Assembly: GCA_002421785.1 (NCBI GenBank)
Contig: DIRZ01000003.1
Span: 120,001 to 152,000, forward strand
Reading direction: 5' to 3'
DNA: 32,000 nt
Origin: Candidatus Saccharimonadota bacterium
GTDB taxonomy: Bacteria > Patescibacteriota > Saccharimonadia > Saccharimonadales > Saccharimonadaceae
Every line of letters starts with the position of its first letter. The first letter of the stretch is position 1. A model generated the notes under the pieces. That model did no database searches and was not told where the DNA came from. It saw nothing but the letters and a program-made list of their open reading frames with translations. Of this stretch, positions 2,392 to 12,420 are shown piece after piece. Both the position numbers and the translations under genes were made by a program.

Positions 2392-2898
2392 TCAGCTGGC
2401 TGCCGTGGCGGGAACCTGCTTGTTCCGTACCACGGACGGCTTGGCTGGCTTCTTGCGGAGGGTGATGGGGTTCGAGCGCGCGGGACGCCGGTCGTGCTGC
2501 GCCTTGTTGGCGGTGGCCTCCAGCGACTTGGCGAAGAACATCGCCGCGAAGCGGTAGACGCCCGGGGTGATCTCGACGGGGTAGCCGTTGGGCCCGAGTA
2601 CGTCCAGCATTCCGGGCAGGTGATCGGGTGCCTCCTCGATGACGGCAGCCACTCGACCCATCGGCTTGAGGCCGCGTGCCGCCCTTGCAGCGTTGTGCTC
2701 CTCGAGGTCGAAGACCAAGAACTGCCAGTACATGACCCGCAGAGCCTCGTACACGGCGGCAGTGACTGGCTTTACGCCGTCGGGGTTGCCGGGAACGGGG
2801 TTGTACGCGTACGTGCCGGTTGCGGACCGAACGGCGAAATTGCCTTCCCAGACACGCTTGACGTGCGCCAGGCGTGCCATTACGGGATCGTTGCCCAT
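2392..2898 (-). CDS. Hypothetical protein, GC-rich islet a (168 aa, no Cys, basic disordered tail)
   Basis: ORF track. GAGGAG lies 6 nt upstream of the ATG, most codons end in G/C when translated by hand, and the amino-acid composition is protein-like. The overlapping plus-strand ORFs are R/G/P-rich nonsense. I recognise no family. Confidence 0.7.
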   Translation of the reverse strand: MGNDPVMARLAHVKRVWEGNFAVRSATGTYAYNPVPGNPDGVKPVTAAVYEALRVMYWQFLVFDLEEHNAARAARGLKPMGRVAAVIEEAPDHLPGMLDVLGPNGYPVEITPGVYRFAAMFFAKSLEATANKAQHDRRPARSNPITLRKKPAKPSVVRNKQVPATAAS

Positions 2899-2948: not shown

Positions 2949-4014
2949 AAGTACGGAATATACTAGGACACCCACTAACTCCCAGTAGCTAAAATAGATT
3001 CATGCAGGCTAAGAAATACATTGGTTTGAGCGACGCGGAGCGGAGCGAAATAGAGATCTTAAAATGTAAAGGATACAGCATACGCAAGATAGCTGAGGTG
3101 CTCGGGCGAAGCCCGAACACCATCAGCCGAGAGATTAAGGTTAATAGCGTAGCTGGTGAGTACACTGCCAAAAAAGCCAAGGCGAAGAGTCGAGTGTCTA
3201 GGCGTAGTCGACGGTACCAGTGGCAGAAGATCGAGAACTACCCCGCGCTTTGGTTGTTCGTAGCTGAGCACTTAGCTCCTCCATACGACTGGAGTCCGCG
3301 AGCAATCTCGGGCTACTTAAGAACGCAGCAGACCATACTGCCATATGTCAGTACGACGCAAATCTATGCTTGGCTTTACAGCTCTAGAGGGCAGCCATAC
3401 TGCCAATACCTCTACTCCGAAAGATACCACCCAAGGAGGCGCCACAAAAACAAGACCGAGCGTGTCATGATTCCCGACCGTGTATCTATTACAGAGCGGC
3501 CAGTGGCTGCTCTGGACCGTTTTGAATCAGGACACTGCGAATACGACTCAATCGTAAGTACTAAGCGTAGCAAGAGTACGGCTGCACTCGCTGTGCTTCA
3601 AGAAAGAACAACGCGGCTCGTGTGTGTAAAGCTTGTTCCCAGCCTCAAGCCAGCGCCGTATGCTGCAGCCATCGTACGGCTTGCTAGCGGGCTGAGAGTA
3701 TACACCATGACAACCGACAACGGCATTGAGAACAAACAGCATAAACTCATTACTGAGAAGACGGGCGCGCCCGTCTTCTTTACTGACCCATACTCCAGTT
3801 GGCAAAAAGGTGGCGTTGAGAATGCCAACAAAATGATCCGACGCTACTTCCCTAAGGGCACTGACTTTAGCGCAGTGAGCCAAGCGGAGATAGACGAAGT
3901 TGTTACTCGCATAAACAACAAGCCGAGGCAGTGCCTCGGCTTTAAAAGTGCGTTACAATGTGCAGTAGAGAAAGGTTTATTGCTGGACGTAGTGTCCTAG
4001 TAATGACCGTACTT
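2949..4014 (+). mobile_element. IS30-family insertion sequence (about 1066 bp)
   Basis: The terminal inverted repeats are AAGTACGGaatatACTAGGACAC (2949..2971) and the reverse complement of 3992..4014, AAGTACGGtcattACTAGGACAC. They flank a single IS30-type transposase gene. I could not see a clear target-site duplication. Confidence 0.85.
3002..4000 (+). CDS. IS30-family transposase
   Basis: 332 aa. There is an N-terminal HTH (YSIRKIAEVLGRSPNTISREI) and a DDE core with the typical DNGIEN ... FFTDPYSSWQKGGVENANKMIRRYFPKG motif. Confidence 0.92.
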   Translation: MQAKKYIGLSDAERSEIEILKCKGYSIRKIAEVLGRSPNTISREIKVNSVAGEYTAKKAKAKSRVSRRSRRYQWQKIENYPALWLFVAEHLAPPYDWSPRAISGYLRTQQTILPYVSTTQIYAWLYSSRGQPYCQYLYSERYHPRRRHKNKTERVMIPDRVSITERPVAALDRFESGHCEYDSIVSTKRSKSTAALAVLQERTTRLVCVKLVPSLKPAPYAAAIVRLASGLRVYTMTTDNGIENKQHKLITEKTGAPVFFTDPYSSWQKGGVENANKMIRRYFPKGTDFSAVSQAEIDEVVTRINNKPRQCLGFKSALQCAVEKGLLLDVVS

Positions 4015-4654: not shown

Positions 4655-5316
4655 GACTGAGTATTACTCCCAAGTACGTCGAGAATTATCGAGCTATCAC
4701 TCACCGTTAAACGCGTCAAAGACGCGTTCGACAATCGCGTTTTGTATACCCACTCTTGATCATAGCCTTTTATTTGGGCGACAAGCGCCTTAATCGCGGT
4801 TTCGTGAGTAACAATCAATCCACATTCGGGCAGCATAATCCCCCGCGCAGCTTCATAGGCTGCATCTTCGCGTGGAGTGTATCGCACCAAATTACCCATG
4901 CGACATACAGCCGCTTTCATTCGCTCACCGACCTCAGCTACCGACTCACCACCCGGTAGTTTAAAGTTCTTGCCTCGTTGCGCAATCTGTTCAAGTCGCT
5001 CAGGCGTATACGTCTCTATGCGTGATTGCCCTTCGAATGCCCCCTGTGACAGTTCTTGGAATGCAGGGTCAATCACCACCCTTCCCCGATAGTTCATTTG
5101 ACGTAATGCGTACGCAGCGGTGTCCATAGTGCGCACCGCAGGTGAAACCGCCACGAGCGATGGCCTGATGAGCATACGCGCCATGTATGCCCCGGCACGT
5201 TTTGCCTGATTGACACCTAATTCGCTCAATGGCGATTCGGGTGTACGACCACCAATCAGCTCTGGGCGTAAATTCGCCTGGGATTGGCCGTGTCGAAGTA
5301 GGTATAGTAGCGCCAT
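4651..5316 (-). CDS. Histidine phosphatase family protein (phosphoglycerate-mutase-like)
   Basis: 221 aa beginning MALLYLLRHGQSQAN (RHG catalytic motif). It overlaps the downstream trmH-like start by 4 nt. Confidence 0.75.
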   Translation of the reverse strand: MALLYLLRHGQSQANLRPELIGGRTPESPLSELGVNQAKRAGAYMARMLIRPSLVAVSPAVRTMDTAAYALRQMNYRGRVVIDPAFQELSQGAFEGQSRIETYTPERLEQIAQRGKNFKLPGGESVAEVGERMKAAVCRMGNLVRYTPREDAAYEAARGIMLPECGLIVTHETAIKALVAQIKGYDQEWVYKTRLSNASLTRLTVSDSSIILDVLGSNTQS

Positions 5317-5337
5317 AGCTATCCATTATGCCACAGC

Positions 5338-5361
5338 AATAAAAAAATACCCATGCGGGTA
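5338..5361 (-). terminator. Intrinsic terminator downstream of CDS 5506..5994
   Basis: The reverse strand reads TACCC-GCAT-GGGTA-TTTTTTTATTGC. It ends with the same TTTTTATTGC tail as the terminator at 2314..2343. Confidence 0.55.
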
Positions 5362-5505
5362 TAGGGGGGTGCTTACCCCAGGAGATGAACGGCGATGCGA
5401 GGACGAGAACACATTGTCTCGTCAGCACGTCCATCCCCCGGGGGTTCACACACTACTTGTATCGTTCAATCGTTACCGAGCGGCGGCGATCAAATGAGGA
5501 TGAGC

Positions 5506-5994
5506 TCAGACGTTGGCCGGCTTCTTGCCGAACACCTGCATCGGGTTCGGCACAGTGGTCGGGGACTTGACCGGGGCGGCGGAGCTGGGCTGCGTGTTGC
5601 TGCGGTACAGCTGGTTGCCGGCCCAGTACAGGGCCTCCTGGGCCCACTGCGACGCCGCCAGGGCGGCTTCGGCCGTGGCCTTGTCGTCGAAGAACGGCTT
5701 GTTCTTCTTGGTGGCGGCTTCGGCGGCGACGTGGATGGCACCCTTCAGGACCTTGCCCGTGCGGCTTTTGACCGCCCGTGCTGCCCTGAACTCCTCCATG
5801 ACGGAGAGGAAGATGACTCGCTGGGGATCATCGTCCTTCATCTTGGTGACGTCCATGGTGATGCCCTTGTTGCACTCGACGTGCTTCATCGCCATGAGGA
5901 TCTGGGGGTCGCGCTGCGCGGCGAGGCGCAGGTACTCGTCCTTGGCCTGGGTCCTGGTGCCGCCTCCGACGATGTGACGCGTGCGGTTAGGCAT
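5506..5994 (-). CDS. Hypothetical protein, GC-rich islet b (162 aa from MPNRTRH)
   Basis: ORF 5506..6006. I prefer the second ATG (5994) because GGAGG lies 5 nt upstream of it. Nearly every codon ends in G/C. The antisense ORFs 5395..6087 and 5513..5977 look like high-GC artefacts. I recognise no family. Confidence 0.7.
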   Translation of the reverse strand: MPNRTRHIVGGGTRTQAKDEYLRLAAQRDPQILMAMKHVECNKGITMDVTKMKDDDPQRVIFLSVMEEFRAARAVKSRTGKVLKGAIHVAAEAATKKNKPFFDDKATAEAALAASQWAQEALYWAGNQLYRSNTQPSSAAPVKSPTTVPNPMQVFGKKPANV

Positions 5995-6091
5995 GGTGAC
6001 CTCCATCCCTTCCCATTAGGGGAAGATTGTAGTGTGTTGAAAACTGCTGATTCCATGCGGGCGAAATGCCTCGTCATGTCATCGTGAAAGC

Positions 6092-6120
6092 ATTGTAGCA
6101 TAAACATGATAATTTGTCAA
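6092..6120 (-). promoter_or_regulatory. Near-consensus promoter for islet-b CDS
   Basis: The reverse strand reads gTATTGACA-aattatcatgtttatgc(17)-TACAAT, about 95 nt upstream of ATG 5994. Confidence 0.6.
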
Positions 6121-6346: not shown

Positions 6347-6467
6347 CGGGGCGTGGAGGTGAGAACTGCCTGTGGCAGTTCGGAAACGAACCTTCCGATG
6401 AAAGCTGTGCTTTCAGTCGTAAAGTTCGGGGGTCGCCTAAGGTGACTAAGTCCTCTTATCCGCACCA
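6347..6467 (+). other. Partial duplicate of the tRNA-Leu(CAG) 3' end, split in the T-loop by an 87-nt structured insert (candidate tRNA-like ncRNA or att remnant)
   Basis: CGGGGCGTGGAGGT (6347..6360) equals 6242..6255, and AAGTCCTCTTATCCGCACCA (6448..6467) equals 6258..6277. In the tRNA these two blocks are 2 nt apart; here they are separated by 6361..6447, which forms three hairpins. No matching 5' acceptor strand lies upstream, so this is not a complete tRNA. Confidence 0.5.
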
Positions 6468-8972: not shown

Positions 8973-9004
8973 GCAAAAAGACTGGCTACTGCCAGTCTTT
9001 TTGC
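8973..9004. terminator. Bidirectional hairpin terminator
   Basis: GCAAAAAGACTGGC-tact-GCCAGTCTTTTTGC is a 14-bp perfect stem with A/T runs on both sides. It lies between the tRNA (+) and CDS 9021..10034 (-). Confidence 0.75.
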
Positions 9005-9020
9005 GTAGCTTTGTACTAAA

Positions 9021-10034
9021 TTACCAGTTCCGAACCCAGAATTGTTGGGTCTTATTAAATATTTTGTAACCGTTTTGATCTGTACTAGCCGACCAGCCAA
9101 AATCATTGCTGTTGAGCCATCCATAGTGTCGCTCCAAAGCACCAATTCGCGTGTTACCATTCATGCCCACGGCATTGAACCACCCGTAGTCGCTAACCGT
9201 TCCGGTTCGTTTTACATCTGGATCTGATGCGCACGTTGCCCCAGCCTGCCATGACACATTGAAGTTCGTGTTCCACAGACTTTGGTGAATCGCTCTGTGG
9301 TCTCCATGGTCGTAACGGTAGCAGTTCGAGTATCTGGCGTTCCTGTATGGACCAACTATATTATAAAATGGAATGCTCGGTAGGCCATAAAGACTTGGGT
9401 TGTCTCGGATTGATCTGATTGCCCAGTCGACCTCATCTTGAGTCAAGTCACCGTCGCCGAGGTTAAAGAATATGACTCGACCCTTGGCGCTATTGTTGCT
9501 AGCAAATGGTTCACTACTCGAATAGAAGACCTTTGCTGAGCTATCTTGGATGAGCGTAGATCCTGCATCAACATGCCCAAGCGATTTGCCCTGAGAATTT
9601 GGCCATACAGTTGTCGACCTGCTCATAGAAAAGCCGCCCGGTATGGCGCTATCTGTCTGAGACATCGTATTTAAGAAGCCTAACGTTGAAGATATTCGTG
9701 CGTTATGGCATTGGGTAGACCACCTAGCATTAGGCAGCACGCTTGGAGAAACCTCATTCCAATGAGTCTGCAGGCTAGGGTTGGCGCAATAAGCGGACTG
9801 CTCGCCACGCGTAAAATAGACAAACACTTTGTAATTGTCTGACGATCCCTCAATCAAGGACCAAGCTTCGAGCTCGTCATCTGGGTGAGGCATAGCCACA
9901 ATCTGCATATGAATTGGTGCGGCCATAACCTCGGCGTCCGTAAATACACTAAAAGACAACGATGTTACGACTAGCGCCAAAGCCGCTAAAGGTAGCGTCA
10001 GACCTTGCTTAATTCGGTGCATTATTTTGTTCAT
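9021..10034 (-). CDS. Secreted protein with PIG-L/LmbE-like deacetylase signature
   Basis: 337 aa. There is an N-terminal signal peptide (LTLPLAALALVVTSLSFSVFTDA) followed by QIVAMPHPDDELEAW, matching the (A/P)HPDDE motif of PIG-L/LmbE deacetylases. AAGGAG lies upstream of the ATG. Confidence 0.6.
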   Translation of the reverse strand: MNKIMHRIKQGLTLPLAALALVVTSLSFSVFTDAEVMAAPIHMQIVAMPHPDDELEAWSLIEGSSDNYKVFVYFTRGEQSAYCANPSLQTHWNEVSPSVLPNARWSTQCHNARISSTLGFLNTMSQTDSAIPGGFSMSRSTTVWPNSQGKSLGHVDAGSTLIQDSSAKVFYSSSEPFASNNSAKGRVIFFNLGDGDLTQDEVDWAIRSIRDNPSLYGLPSIPFYNIVGPYRNARYSNCYRYDHGDHRAIHQSLWNTNFNVSWQAGATCASDPDVKRTGTVSDYGWFNAVGMNGNTRIGALERHYGWLNSNDFGWSASTDQNGYKIFNKTQQFWVRNW

Positions 10035-10065
10035 GTTTCTCCTTTTTTATTAATAATCCCCATAA

Positions 10066-10095
10066 ATAATAGCACGAACATTTTAGGGCGTGCAA
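10066..10095 (-). promoter_or_regulatory. Candidate promoter of CDS 9021..10034
   Basis: The reverse strand reads TTGCAC-gccctaaaatgttcgtgc(18)-TATTAT. Confidence 0.4.
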
Positions 10096-10420
10096 TCATG
10101 GAAGTAATCAGGAATTCATCCTTAGGCGGGACTGCCGAATGACGCCAAGAAATCGTCTTTCCTAGCAGTAATTTGTCAGTTTTCGTGATCATGCGCTCTA
10201 CTACGTCGTTAACTATGGGTTTACGATTTTGTTTTTAGGTTTAAGGTCTAATTCCGGTCGTTCTTATGTTTGCTTATCACAATCTATTCTGGCGCAATAA
10301 CCCATTAGGACAGACTATATGTCAAATCGTTAATAGTGGACTTCCAGGGCGGATAAATGGAGCGTACGGATACGCTTTGTTGACCCGCTCTGGAAAGAGT
10401 TAGGTCAACAAAGGATAGCT

Positions 10421-10639
10421 ATGATCAGTGTACGGCAGCGAAAGACGAAGTCTTTCACCGAGAAGCTCAAGGGATGTTTTGATCAGGGCAAGTTCCTGTG
10501 TGTCGGACTGGACCCGTCGGAGAAGGAGCTTGAGAAGGTCCATAACCGCAACTCCGCCGAAGACACTCTGGAGTACCTGACCGACATTGTCAACGCGATC
10601 GCCTCGTTCGCGACAGCGTTCAAGCCGAACTTCGGGTAG
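10421..10639 (+). pseudogene. pyrF: 5' fragment (72 codons) of a type-2 orotidine-5'-phosphate decarboxylase gene
   Basis: The sequence ...KGCFDQGKFLCVGLDPS...ASFATAFKPNFG* carries the FLCVGLD and (A/Y)KPN motifs of long-form PyrF. It stops where KPNxxFFE would continue, and the remaining roughly 200 codons are absent. An AAGGA SD precedes the ATG. Confidence 0.6.
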
Positions 10640-10830
10640 TCGACGAAGTCCCGGCCGTCGATCTGGAGCCCTACAAGGCCGAGATCGCAGCCAAGTGCAG
10701 CGTCATCGCCGTCAAGCGACCGCACAGTTCCGGCTACACTCCCGCTCAGGCAGGATTCGCCATGGGCGCATGGCACGACGACCCCGACCACAACGACCCC
10801 TACGAGAACACACGAGAAGACTACCGATGA
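10639..10830 (+). pseudogene. Start-less 3' fragment of an unidentified GC-rich gene, stop overlapping the E1-like start (ATGA)
   Basis: Hand translation gives VDEVPAVDLEPYKAEIAAKCSVIAVKRPHSSGYTPAQAGFAMGAWHDDPDHNDPYENTREDYR*. The frame is open only back to a TAA at 10543..10545, with no ATG/GTG/TTG codon upstream of residue V1. Its codons are strongly G/C-ending. Confidence 0.5.
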
Positions 10831-11567
10831 CCGACCCCTTCACCCTGACCGTCGACGACACCGAGGATGGCATGCTCTACACGGCCGTTCGCCAGAACGC
10901 ACCGGACTGGGCAGACCAGACCGGCTGGTTCGATCCCGACAAGGCGACCTCACCCGTCACCATCATCGGGTGCGGCGGCATCGGCAGCAATGTGGCGTTC
11001 GAGCTCATCACGATGGGCTTCAAGCGCTTCGTGCTGTACGACGATGACATCGTCGAGCCGCGGAACCTTGTCTCTCAGAAGGCGTTCCGCCCTCGCGACC
11101 TCTACCGTCCCAAGGTGGAGGCGCTTGCGGAAGTACTCATCGAGTACGGCGCCGTCGAGGTGCTGGTTCGCCGGCGTCTCTTCACTGCCGAAGACATCAT
11201 CGAAGGTGCCATCGTCATCGGTGCCGTCGACTCCATGAGGTCCCGCAAGATCATCTGGGAGGCAGTCACCAATTCGCCGGATGTCGAGCTCTACCTCGAT
11301 GGACGACTGGGCGGCCAGACCGCCCAGATCTTTGCCATCGAGCCGCTCGACGGCGACTGGTACGAGGCCGACTGGCTGTTCGACGACAGCGAGGCGACGA
11401 CCGGGATCACCTGCACGATGCGTGCCATCGTGTACCCCTCGACCGTCATGGCCGGCATCATGTGCCGCCACCTCTCGAGGTGGTCACGCGGCCAGTCGGT
11501 GTGCCGGTTCACACAGTGGGAGGGATCCACGAACGAGATCACCACGTTCGGAGACATCGAGGAGTGA
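10827..11567 (+). CDS. ThiF/MoeB-family E1-like adenylyltransferase (246 aa, minimal, orphan)
   Basis: ORF 10587..11567 trimmed to ATG 10827, because the upstream extension is RSPRS-rich nonsense from a TTG. Motifs: Rossmann IIGCGGIGSNVAFEL, YDDDIVEPRNLVSQ (the DxDxVexsNLxRQ type), RPKVEALAEVL and GAVDSMRSRKII. Confidence 0.8.
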   Translation: MTDPFTLTVDDTEDGMLYTAVRQNAPDWADQTGWFDPDKATSPVTIIGCGGIGSNVAFELITMGFKRFVLYDDDIVEPRNLVSQKAFRPRDLYRPKVEALAEVLIEYGAVEVLVRRRLFTAEDIIEGAIVIGAVDSMRSRKIIWEAVTNSPDVELYLDGRLGGQTAQIFAIEPLDGDWYEADWLFDDSEATTGITCTMRAIVYPSTVMAGIMCRHLSRWSRGQSVCRFTQWEGSTNEITTFGDIEE

Positions 11568-11572
11568 GACCA

Positions 11573-11610
11573 GCGGAGACCCCTGGGCACTTGTGCCTGA
11601 GGGTCTCCGC
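11573..11610 (+). terminator. GC-only hairpin after the E1-like gene
   Basis: GCGGAGACCC...GGGTCTCCGC is a 10-bp perfect stem with an inner GGCAC/GTGCC helix and no T-tail. Confidence 0.6.
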
Positions 11611-11714
11611 GACCGACCACGAATGATAAAGTCGTGCTGATGAGCTGTAGACAGCGAATCGGTCAAATCTATTACAAAGCTAGGCAACAATGCACCATAC
11701 CGTGCATACTACCA

Positions 11715-12140
11715 CTACTCCTCTGGGTATTTACTCGGGTCACCAAGACAATAGCGTACCCATCGTGAATCCTGCTCAACCGTGATGCTTTCAATATAGT
11801 CACCATTATCGAACTTGCCGCGTTTCGCAGCCTTGGCCTCACTCGCAGCAGCCGTCATGGCGTCGGTCACTCCATAATGTTTTTTGAGCGCGACGACGAC
11901 GTCCTCCAGATCAGCAATCTCTGCGACAATTTCACCAAATTCTGCTTTAGTTGGGCTATCGGTGACTGGAATCTCATCCGCCTCTTCATGAACCTTCGCA
12001 ATAAGCTCACGAATTAGCTCAATGCCGTGCAGCGTTCGATGGGACATGCCAACAACCGACGCTTCTTCCTGATAGTCCGGGACTGTCCTGTCACGAACAA
12101 GCTTCCTAAAATAAAATGTCCTGGGTTGTTGCTCGCTCAT
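11715..12140 (-). CDS. MazG-like all-alpha nucleoside triphosphate pyrophosphohydrolase family protein
   Basis: ORF 11715..12290 trimmed to ATG 12140, which has GGAGGAAGGG upstream. The opening MSEQQPRTFYFRKLVRDRTVPDY and an acidic helical core (EEADEI...EIADLEDV) resemble the house-cleaning NTP-PPase family. Confidence 0.55.
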   Translation of the reverse strand: MSEQQPRTFYFRKLVRDRTVPDYQEEASVVGMSHRTLHGIELIRELIAKVHEEADEIPVTDSPTKAEFGEIVAEIADLEDVVVALKKHYGVTDAMTAAASEAKAAKRGKFDNGDYIESITVEQDSRWVRYCLGDPSKYPEE

Positions 12141-12183: not shown

Positions 12184-12420
12184 TTACCACTCTCCTTCCT
12201 GAAGTGCCACCGCACCCATATAATGACGTCGAGCCATGTCCAGTTGTTCCTGGAGCCGACACTGTTCTTCGAATGACGCGCCCGCAGCAATTCCGCGCCT
12301 CAGTAGTATTTGCGCCTGCCATGTCGAAAACTCTGCACCCAGATTCCTCGTTCGGGGCAAAAAAATAGACCCCAATGGGTCGAATGCGTCGATTTGTTTT
12401 GCGTGTTCACCGTTTGTCAT
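12184..12420 (-). CDS. Hypothetical small protein (78 aa)
   Basis: ORF 12184..12444 trimmed to ATG 12420. It lies between rsmD and the MazG-like gene on the same strand. I recognise no family. Confidence 0.4.
   Translation of the reverse strand: MTNGEHAKQIDAFDPLGSIFLPRTRNLGAEFSTWQAQILLRRGIAAGASFEEQCRLQEQLDMARRHYMGAVALQEGEW

Follow-up and report, generated by a model that had tools for sequence, protein, structure and literature searches.

A minimal E1-like gene behind the remnant of a peptidase gene

The subject of this analysis is a small gene for an E1-like protein in a 32,000-nucleotide (nt) stretch of DNA from a Candidatus Saccharimonadota bacterium (GenBank assembly GCA_002421785.1, contig DIRZ01000003.1, positions 120,001 to 152,000), referred to below as the window and numbered from its first letter. 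The gene lies on the plus strand at 10827 to 11567, with its ATG at 10827 and its TGA at 11565-11567, and forms an intact open reading frame (ORF) of 246 codons that encodes a ThiF-fold adenylation domain. Its ATG overlaps, as ATGA, the TGA (10828-10830) that closes the frame of a JAB/JAMM peptidase gene remnant (10621 to 10830, plus strand), of which approximately the last 63 codons and the stop are left; upstream of this remnant, and partly overlapping it, lies the 72-codon ORF pyrF' (10421 to 10639, plus strand). On the other side, a G+C-rich hairpin that lacks a U-tract (11573 to 11610, plus strand; inverted repeat I9) comes directly after the E1 stop and is followed by an element resembling the type III hammerhead ribozyme (11610 to 11665, plus strand), which forms the right edge of the cassette described below. 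An earlier reading of the same DNA (the original prediction) had extended the E1 feature to 11610; this is the end of the hairpin, and the gene itself stops at 11567.

The protein passes the superfamily cut-off of Pfam ThiF (PF00899; 78.8 bits against a gathering score of 28.1, E 4.6e-22), and its AlphaFold model, for which 46 homologues were given as input, has a mean pLDDT of 90. Among solved structures, the best Foldseek matches of the model are E. coli ThiF and MoeB (TM score about 0.7, about 20% identity, E 2e-13), with eukaryotic E1 adenylation domains, MccB, UBA5 and Citrobacter BubCD lower down. The four motifs from which the E1/ThiF fold had originally been proposed are all found in the protein: GCGGIGS at residues 47-53, DDDIVEPRNLVSQ at 72-84, RPKVEA at 94-99 and GAVDSMRSR at 132-140. 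Furthermore, the 12 columns that are invariant across 46 homologues are all kept (G48, G50, G53, G64, D74, N80, K96, D135, R140, D158, R160 and C196), so that the degraded active site which would have spoken against the original prediction is absent. D135 occupies the Mg-binding Asp position. C196 is located in a low-confidence crossover loop of the model, the usual site of catalytic cysteines in E1 enzymes, and is probably the catalytic Cys. By analogy with the rest of the superfamily, the protein would adenylate a C-terminal carboxylate in an ATP-dependent manner.

Several features are peculiar to this protein. Its N-terminus bears an extra beta-hairpin with a conserved DW(S/A)DQTGWFDP motif, and its 246 residues contain no CxxC. 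The gene has a GC content of 0.63 and a third-codon-position GC content (GC3) of 0.86, against a GC3 of 0.43-0.60 in the host genes of the window, and its composition is thus as foreign as the original prediction had held. Homologues at 56-91% identity all lie on Saccharibacteria-like contigs, short or long. A separate observation concerns the ATP-site motif at residues 79-84 (window 11061-11078), which reads RNLxSQ in the whole E1 family, as opposed to (S/T)NLxRQ in canonical E1, ThiF and MccB; the usual ATP-site Arg appears displaced by four residues in this family.

The intact cassette in related bacteria

Wherever the flanking sequence suffices, the E1 homologue stands last in a conserved cassette rich in GC, which was found in more than 20 related loci (designated by L numbers below), mostly of Saccharibacteria. 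Its genes usually stand in this order: a coiled-coil protein of 458-478 amino acids (aa), a ubiquitin-like protein (Ubl) of 76-94 aa, a gap of about 440 nt, a Prok-JAB peptidase of 200-226 aa, and the E1, 3' of which come the hairpin and then the hammerhead-type-III-like element. The intact cassette occupies the syntenic slot (tRNA-Leu(tag) ... RsmD-like gene, 268-aa gene, RecG) in L006, L008 and L013; further intact copies are L015, L017, L019, L100, L105 and L106-L118. The four genes are present in unchanged order even where the E1 is only 35-48% identical (L022-L028 and L111-L118); in L034, from Solirubrobacterales, the order is Ubl, E2-like, JAB, E1, and the Cys-domain (E2-like) protein is shorter. 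That the linkage of the genes has been kept over such a wide divergence is the chief argument for a joint function of the four proteins. The cassette evidently circulates among Saccharibacteria, with distant versions in Solirubrobacterales and other phyla.

The Ubl always ends in LG and gives weak matches to ThiS, Ub-Mut7C and SAMP2, as is expected of a Ubl with a ready-made C-terminus, while the JAB protein carries the metalloprotease motif HSH...S..TD and matches Prok-JAB at E 1e-8. The original prediction had likened the E1 to those of E1/E2/JAB/Ubl cassettes; Ubl, JAB and E1 are indeed present in the intact relatives, but the identity of the fourth protein as an E2 stands less firmly (see below).

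At every locus the GC content of the cassette is above that of its flanks (0.55-0.62 against 0.42-0.53). Its first gene is preceded by a promoter with TGCTATAAT and a structured leader, and the gap between Ubl and JAB contains a second strong promoter, TTGACT-17-TATAAT, overlapped by a palindrome. This gap (L013:2036-2472 and its equivalents) is conserved in length and holds a small conserved hairpin motif, GTYGTAGCG...GTCTCC. The palindrome, GTCAATGTAT..ATACATTGAC, overlaps the -35 element of the strong promoter and may be an operator for some regulator.

The window segment 10757-12583, which spans the JAB tail, the E1 with its 3' elements and two small downstream genes, is 84% identical to both L013 and L100, although the identity between the window and L013 falls to about 66% in RecG and the genes beside it; hence the cassette module moves or recombines between lineages. 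Partial repeats of the tRNA-Leu(tag) 3' end lie directly to the left of the first promoter (L100:1676-1720, L015:1-30, L112:~4920-4945 and, in degenerate form, L006:~4775-4795). They suggest the att scar of a tRNA-integrating element and insertion of the cassette at that tRNA. No integrase gene was seen near these repeats, and a tRNA-Leu 3'-end repeat that might be an att remnant was sought in the window downstream of 8970 and not found. A phage origin of the E1 was considered and rejected: one scan of viral contigs gave no relative, and GenBank phages (crAss-like and Flavobacterium phages) had only ThiF-like genes at 30-34% identity.

Decay is also seen independently of the window. The E2-like gene is split into fragments in the complete 1.32-Mb genome CP064960.1 (L011/L021, 5098-6464), and the E1 proteins P0029 and P0054 are 3'-truncated after about 95-120 residues and run into unrelated sequence.

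Truncation of the cassette in the window

Hidden Markov models (HMMs) of the relatives' Ubl, JAB and E2-like proteins were run against all 721 stop-to-stop frames of the window. Their sole match is the JAB tail (E 1e-12); no Ubl, no E2-like and no complete JAB gene was found in these frames, in agreement with the original prediction that the E1 has no such partner here. As for the remainder of the genome, 21 E2-like clusters were retrieved from a collection of 5.8 billion proteins, and for none of them is the longest contig one of 812,921 or 194,332 bp, the two large contigs carrying the locus. This speaks against an intact second cassette on most of the genome, while leaving room for a lone Ubl gene. 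A metagenome scan with the E2-like domain gave 13 loci, none of them from the window's JGI sample, though this sample may lie outside the collection scanned. Given that there is no cognate Ubl or E2 in reach, we infer that the E1 has been orphaned. The E1 adjoins JAB in all other loci that were examined with enough flank.

The remnant upstream of the E1 aligns with the C-terminus of the JAB protein that precedes the E1 in intact cassettes (tblastn, JAB residues 155-225). Its frame is open from 10639 for 63 codons to the TGA; it lacks a proper start codon, the sole usable start being an internal ATG at 10761-10763, and it lacks the catalytic motifs. Its GC content is 0.63. The original prediction had described a 63-codon tail whose stop overlaps the E1 start, had asked for it to be compared with JAB, and had taken the E1 for the last gene of a truncated operon; all of this agrees with the present result.

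Up to about 10620, the first 66 or so codons of pyrF' encode the N-terminal part of a type-2 orotidine-5'-phosphate decarboxylase (TIGR02127 pyrF_sub2, E 8e-9, profile positions 1-60 of 261), and the last 6 or so codons with the TAG stop are JAB-derived DNA read out of frame; the GC3 of this ORF is 0.78. The left junction, between pyrF' and JAB, lies at about 10621-10626. Homology to the intact cassettes of L015 and L017 begins at the same place, inside JAB at about residue 155-163, and ends at 11665-11668. The genes for the Ubl and the E2-like protein are lost in the window, along with both promoters and the catalytic two-thirds of JAB; the JAB tail and the E1 are kept, together with the hairpin and the hammerhead-like element. 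By comparison of these sequences, a rearrangement at the tRNA-Leu-linked hot spot has evidently removed the 5' part of the cassette, fusing the remainder to a pyrF fragment.

The exact E1 protein, with 100% identical surrounding DNA across both junctions, occurs in five assemblies (JGI, ENA, Logan), including the 194-kb and 813-kb contigs. In addition, L103, a contig that is 7.5% diverged, has exactly the window's pyrF'/JAB junction; its host-side DNA is 94-96% identical, but its JAB tail only 78%. Since L103 shares the junction, the truncation is older than the split of at least two lineages, and the cassette-derived part of the window has evidently recombined since the truncation. The window E1 is a mosaic, being for the most part closest to L105 and L019 with a 3' end that resembles L017. 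The closest E1 proteins, P0001 and P0003, have an intact JAB upstream; the E1 of the L103 lineage itself was not recovered.

A simple deletion from an ancestor with pyrF plus cassette was considered as the origin of this arrangement and rejected, as relatives carry a pyrF' cut elsewhere. In L099 and L101, which lack a cassette here, it breaks off at 10573 and the RsmD-like gene follows directly, and in L100 the same short pyrF' (10573) is followed by a NUDIX gene and an intact cassette; the cut lies at 10573 throughout L099-L102, and P0143 also has a cut at a point other than that of the window. These differing cuts require several independent rearrangements. As to the pyrF fragment itself, all related strains found (L099-L103 and P0142-P0146) have only truncated versions of 55-81 aa with differing breakpoints, and a word-indexed search gave no full-length relative.

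Taken together, we consider it likely that the E1 is the last surviving gene of a mobile four-gene Ubl cassette whose partners have been deleted, and that what remains is most probably a non-functional, drifting relic.

Does the orphan E1 still function?

The promoter of the Ubl-JAB gap, which served JAB and the E1, is deleted in the window, and a consensus scan of the plus strand from 9900 to 10830 found no sigma-70-like promoter. The ribosome-binding site of the window E1 reads GAGAAG, where relatives have GAGGAG or GAGAGG, and is judged from this to be weaker. In the protein, the changes A82V (in the nucleotide-site motif) and A205S fall in columns that are invariant in all 15 close relatives, and H89P and Q116R are also private to the window. 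When the differences from the closest copy, L105, were polarised by six outgroups, the window branch was found to have 9 non-synonymous to 2 synonymous substitutions (binomial p 0.004 against an omega of 0.2; Fisher p 0.0007 against the L019-L013 pair).

Several points weigh against a relic. The 9:2 count rests on only 11 substitutions, polarised with recombining relatives, and L105, on which it depends, is a contig of 1.4x coverage; when codons 1-40, a stretch of possible recombination, are left out, the count is 4:2 and not significant. The pairwise ratio of non-synonymous to synonymous rates (dN/dS) between the window E1 and other relatives is 0.22-0.34, which is raised but well below 1; among copies on contigs with the whole cassette (L019, L013 and L100) or most of JAB (L104) it is 0.09-0.29. 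The ORF is complete, with all family-invariant residues including Cys196 intact, and the hairpin and hammerhead-like element are intact as well. Finally, the truncated arrangement persists in two lineages whose host-side DNA is about 5% apart, which could mean that the E1 has been retained for a reason.

These same observations, namely the intact ORF with its catalytic residues, the shared junction in the diverged lineage of L103, the preserved 3' elements and the mostly low pairwise dN/dS (below 0.35), are what favours an orphan E1 that is still functional in a new job. Such an E1 might act on another carboxylate substrate, use a Ubl encoded elsewhere, or work in trans with the intact cassette of co-resident cells. 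We regard this as rather unlikely, given that Ubl, E2-like and complete JAB genes are missing from the window and, apparently, from the large contigs, that the internal promoter is gone and the ribosome-binding site weakened, that the window branch shows the 9:2 count and private changes at invariant columns, and that the E1 lies next to JAB in all the other loci with enough flank. On the question of function raised by the original prediction, the intact residues thus speak for activity, while the promoter, the ribosome-binding site and the substitution count point to a relic. On balance, though not conclusively, the evidence favours a relic on which constraint has been relaxed, its ORF still undisrupted, over an enzyme put to a new use.

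The fourth cassette protein is probably E2-like

The protein of about 470 aa encoded by the first gene of the cassette has two long coiled coils and matches no family in Pfam, NCBIfam or PADLOC. Its C-terminal 150 or so residues (model pLDDT 85) start with a helix and a four-stranded antiparallel sheet, followed by a long loop, which contains the sequence GWHPxxxxFCFG, and two helices. A profile of this C-terminal domain matched 240 cluster representatives among 1.84 billion proteins. Many of the 240 representatives were matched twice, which points to an internal duplication of the domain. Among 83 of these distant members that were aligned, none of which matches a Pfam family, invariance is confined to two residues, the G of YDLGD and the C of FCFG. 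The PF27605 tag borne by some of the E2-like proteins in precomputed tables was looked into and set aside, since it is only a faint match of their coiled coils to ODF2_C.

When a 93-sequence profile was compared by hhalign with four human E2 enzymes, the two were colinear over 125 columns, with HP falling on HPN and the invariant Cys on the catalytic Cys85. The probability of this match is only 7% (pairwise E 0.005), however, and other searches were negative: Foldseek with the whole model, dominated by the coiled coils, returned nothing, and a profile search of PDB sequences gave no match. A single-sequence hhalign comparison with UBE2D2 likewise found nothing. Hence, we regard the protein as probably E2-like, by reasoned argument rather than by demonstrated membership.

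A hammerhead-like element at the 3' edge

The hairpin that follows the E1 varies in sequence among relatives, its pairing being kept throughout, and the RNA fold z-score over window positions 11565-11680 is -4.9. In the hammerhead-like element, a block of about 56 nt is almost invariant while the coding DNA is only 66-84% identical. This element matches Rfam RF00008 (Hammerhead_3) over its full length (positions 1-54) with 33.3 bits and E 1e-5 in a 261-nt scan; falling short of the gathering cut-off (48.5), it escapes standard annotation. Copies stand 3' of the E1 in L006, L008, L013, L015, L017, L019, L100, L104, L105 and the window, and homology between cassettes in differing contexts stops exactly at the end of the block. 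No such element was detected, at the sensitivity used, downstream of the E1 in five more distant cassettes.

The element has the core CUGAUGA...GAA and three stems in the order of type III. Among ten distinct variants, 99.3% of cells pair, stems I and III each show one compensatory pair, and the core differs solely at N7, its one unconstrained position. The core, the three stems, the topology and the compensatory changes are thus shared with the type III hammerhead of RF00008, from which the element differs in its sub-threshold score and in its 15.1-16.1 pair, which is U-A in all ten variants and not A15.1-U16.1. A natural hammerhead variant with this rare U15.1-A16.1 pair is reported to self-cleave, albeit less efficiently (Perreault et al. 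2011, PMC3088659). By analogy, the element may self-cleave and form the mRNA 3' end of the operon; the predicted cleavage site is after C11617, about 50 nt past the E1 stop.

Other ribozyme-linked RNAs were observed near two of the cassettes. Upstream of that in L008, a RAGATH-10 RNA (RF03147, 60.5 bits; L008:2019-2096) and a sequence with a canonical hammerhead core (L008:~2630-2700) flank a 163-aa gene, and near that in L110 there is a 43-bit Hammerhead_3 match (L110:2691-2746, minus strand).

Proposed working of the cassette and its relation to known systems

The working of the intact cassette can be proposed from the established E1-E2 mechanism (families as in PMC1779556 and PMC11601596). 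The E1 would adenylate the C-terminal Gly of the 76-94-aa Ubl (...LG), which would then move onto Cys196 of the E1 as a thioester. The E1 would hand the Ubl to the invariant Cys in the C-terminal domain of the coiled-coil protein, probably E2-like, which would attach it to a target, and the JAB peptidase would reverse the attachment. Given that both the E1 and the presumed E2 have an invariant Cys, thioester chemistry is to be expected.

The nearest known parallel is provided by the Bil systems (the '6d' operons of Iyer, Burroughs and Aravind 2006), in which BilA is the Ubl, BilB the E2, BilC the JAB peptidase and BilD the E1 (PMC1779556; PMC11601596). Like these, the intact relatives have a small Ubl, a JAB/JAMM peptidase, an E1 and an invariant-Cys protein that is probably the E2, with no E3, and the cassette is mobile, patchily distributed and often decayed. 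However, an E1 of the BilD type consists of an inactive and an active adenylation domain plus a Cys domain (PMC11601596), whereas the E1 here is a single ThiF-like domain of 246 aa, which the BilD model of PADLOC matches with only 22.5 bits (residues 41-145). Further differences from Bil lie in the presumed E2, a protein of about 470 aa that combines two coiled coils with a duplicated domain absent from Pfam; in the Ubl, which consists of one beta-grasp domain with LG at its end; in the hammerhead-like close of the operon; and in the hosts, Saccharibacteria. Thus, the cassette is judged to resemble Bil in gene content and in its proposed working, and not to be a member by sequence or E1 architecture. 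The Bub systems (6E/DUF6527) are likewise Ubl/E1/E2/JAB modules of bacteria, and the E1 domain of Citrobacter BubCD (PDB 9eav) is a distant match (E 4e-4, Foldseek rank 34). They use Tyr and Ser oxyester intermediates, a DUF6527 serine protease, BubE, and JAB-E1 or E2-E1 fusions (PMC11601596); here, in contrast, the genes are separate and both catalytic positions have Cys. No match to DUF6527 was reported among the cassette neighbours.

An origin from a PRTRC cassette, which the original prediction had named, or from an E1-E2 system of the Cap2 type (CBASS or 6A-MBL) would account for a series of weak partial matches (6A-MBL cap2_3 47, PRTRC_ThiF 35, PADLOC E1-E2 at most 44 and BilD 22.5 bits). 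We find it very improbable. The matches span only about 65-115 residues around the nucleotide-binding motif (about 40-107 for PADLOC E1-E2); TIGR03736, the PRTRC model, scores 35 bits against a cut-off of 144.75 and only over residues 43-159, which disposes of that part of the original prediction; and cap2_3 scores 47 against a cut-off of 320, the E1 here being a single 246-aa domain with no fused E2. Furthermore, no Pfam match to CD-NTase, metallo-beta-lactamase or ParB-like families is recorded for the E1 neighbours in relatives, though PRTRC partners (ParB-related, PRTRC A-F) were not searched for directly.

A housekeeping ThiF or MoeB that adenylates a sulfur carrier for thiamine or molybdopterin is suggested by the best NCBIfam scores, which are to ThiF models, and by the closest solved folds, E. 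coli ThiF and MoeB. The likeness to these two E. coli proteins extends to size, fold, GxGxxG, the Mg-binding Asp and the crossover-loop Cys. Nevertheless, all equivalog scores are far below their cut-offs (PRK08644 67.5 against 159, TIGR02356 55.2 against 275 and moeB 26.4 against 377 bits), and identity is only about 20%; the E1 here lacks the zinc CxxC pairs and has the N-terminal hairpin and RNLxSQ; in more than 20 loci it is accompanied by JAB, Ubl and the Cys-domain protein, and never by thiS, thiG or moaD; and its composition is foreign and its distribution patchy and mobile. Such a role, which the original prediction had named as the outcome that would overturn it, is therefore even harder to credit than a PRTRC or Cap2 origin. 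That the GC-rich block is an assembly chimera of a high-GC organism and a Saccharibacteria contig, as the abrupt changes in GC at about 10600 and 11610 might suggest, can be practically discounted, because five assemblies have identical sequence over both junctions, the diverged contig L103 shares the junction, and other Saccharibacteria have, at the syntenic slot, intact cassettes that show the same GC contrast.

As for the biological role of the cassette, analogy with Bil and CBASS, together with its patchy, mobile and decay-prone distribution, suggests that this is most likely defence or another genetic conflict. We see an even chance that the cassettes constitute an undescribed family of Cys-dependent Ubl-conjugation systems, with the following traits taken together: a minimal E1 of ThiF size, a single-domain Ubl ending in LG, a JAB peptidase and a new, duplicated E2-like domain, absent from Pfam, that is borne on coiled coils; mobility among the ultra-small, episymbiotic Saccharibacteria next to tRNA-Leu 3'-end repeats; GC richness as if from high-GC Actinobacteria, the group to which the cultivated hosts of Saccharibacteria belong; an mRNA 3' end made by a variant self-cleaving hammerhead; and a possible part in defence against phages or in episymbiont-host conflict. 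The literature searched contained no link of Saccharibacteria with such a Ubl-conjugation system or with this hammerhead variant.

Given that the gene in the window is an orphaned remnant, its intrinsic interest is limited. The family from which it comes has two unusual features, the unassigned Cys domain, which is probably E2-like, and the hammerhead-like end. Its status as a relic does, however, remove the temptation to assign the E1 to thiamine or molybdopterin synthesis, pathways that the organism lacks, and the relic points to a compact Ubl-conjugation module in bacteria of the candidate phyla radiation that has seemingly not been characterised before. To our knowledge, the E1 of this module is of the smallest kind known. 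If the module works as proposed, it would represent a new branch of the bacterial relatives of ubiquitination and offer a small, tractable set of E1, E2, Ubl and deubiquitinase. The hammerhead-like 3' end provides a tangible example of a ribozyme that may set where an operon transcript ends, and the locus as a whole documents the gain, recombination and erosion of such cassettes at a tRNA-linked hot spot in reduced genomes.

Other features of the window

The neighbours of the E1 in the window include the genes for histidyl- and tyrosyl-tRNA synthetases, RecG and a class A penicillin-binding protein, as well as two tRNA-Leu genes; relatives with the same gene order were deposited as Candidatus Saccharimonas or Saccharibacteria. 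To the right of the hammerhead-like element, on the minus strand, lie two small genes of unknown function with no Pfam family for either (141 aa at 11715-12140 and 78 aa at 12184-12420). They travel with the right side of the cassette in some relatives and are best regarded as an associated flank, not as conjugation machinery.

A second foreign-looking gene is the 168-aa ORF at 2392-2898 (minus strand; GC 0.66, GC3 0.83), which has no Pfam family and adjoins a 332-aa protein with an HTH_38 domain (3002-4000, plus strand) that looks like an IS30-type transposase. In a patch of 0.60 GC at 5000-6100, upstream of tRNA-Leu(cag), the gene calls of two assemblies conflict, and no family is matched by either set. 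The 3' end of this tRNA recurs as a 12-nt repeat (TTATCCGCACCA) at 6456-6467, about 180 nt downstream of the tRNA. Lastly, a 25-nt inverted repeat with 84% complementarity pairs 8998-9022, just after the tRNA-Leu(tag) terminator, with 11666-11690, just after the hammerhead-like element; its two arms enclose the entire variable island, and the match may be due to chance.

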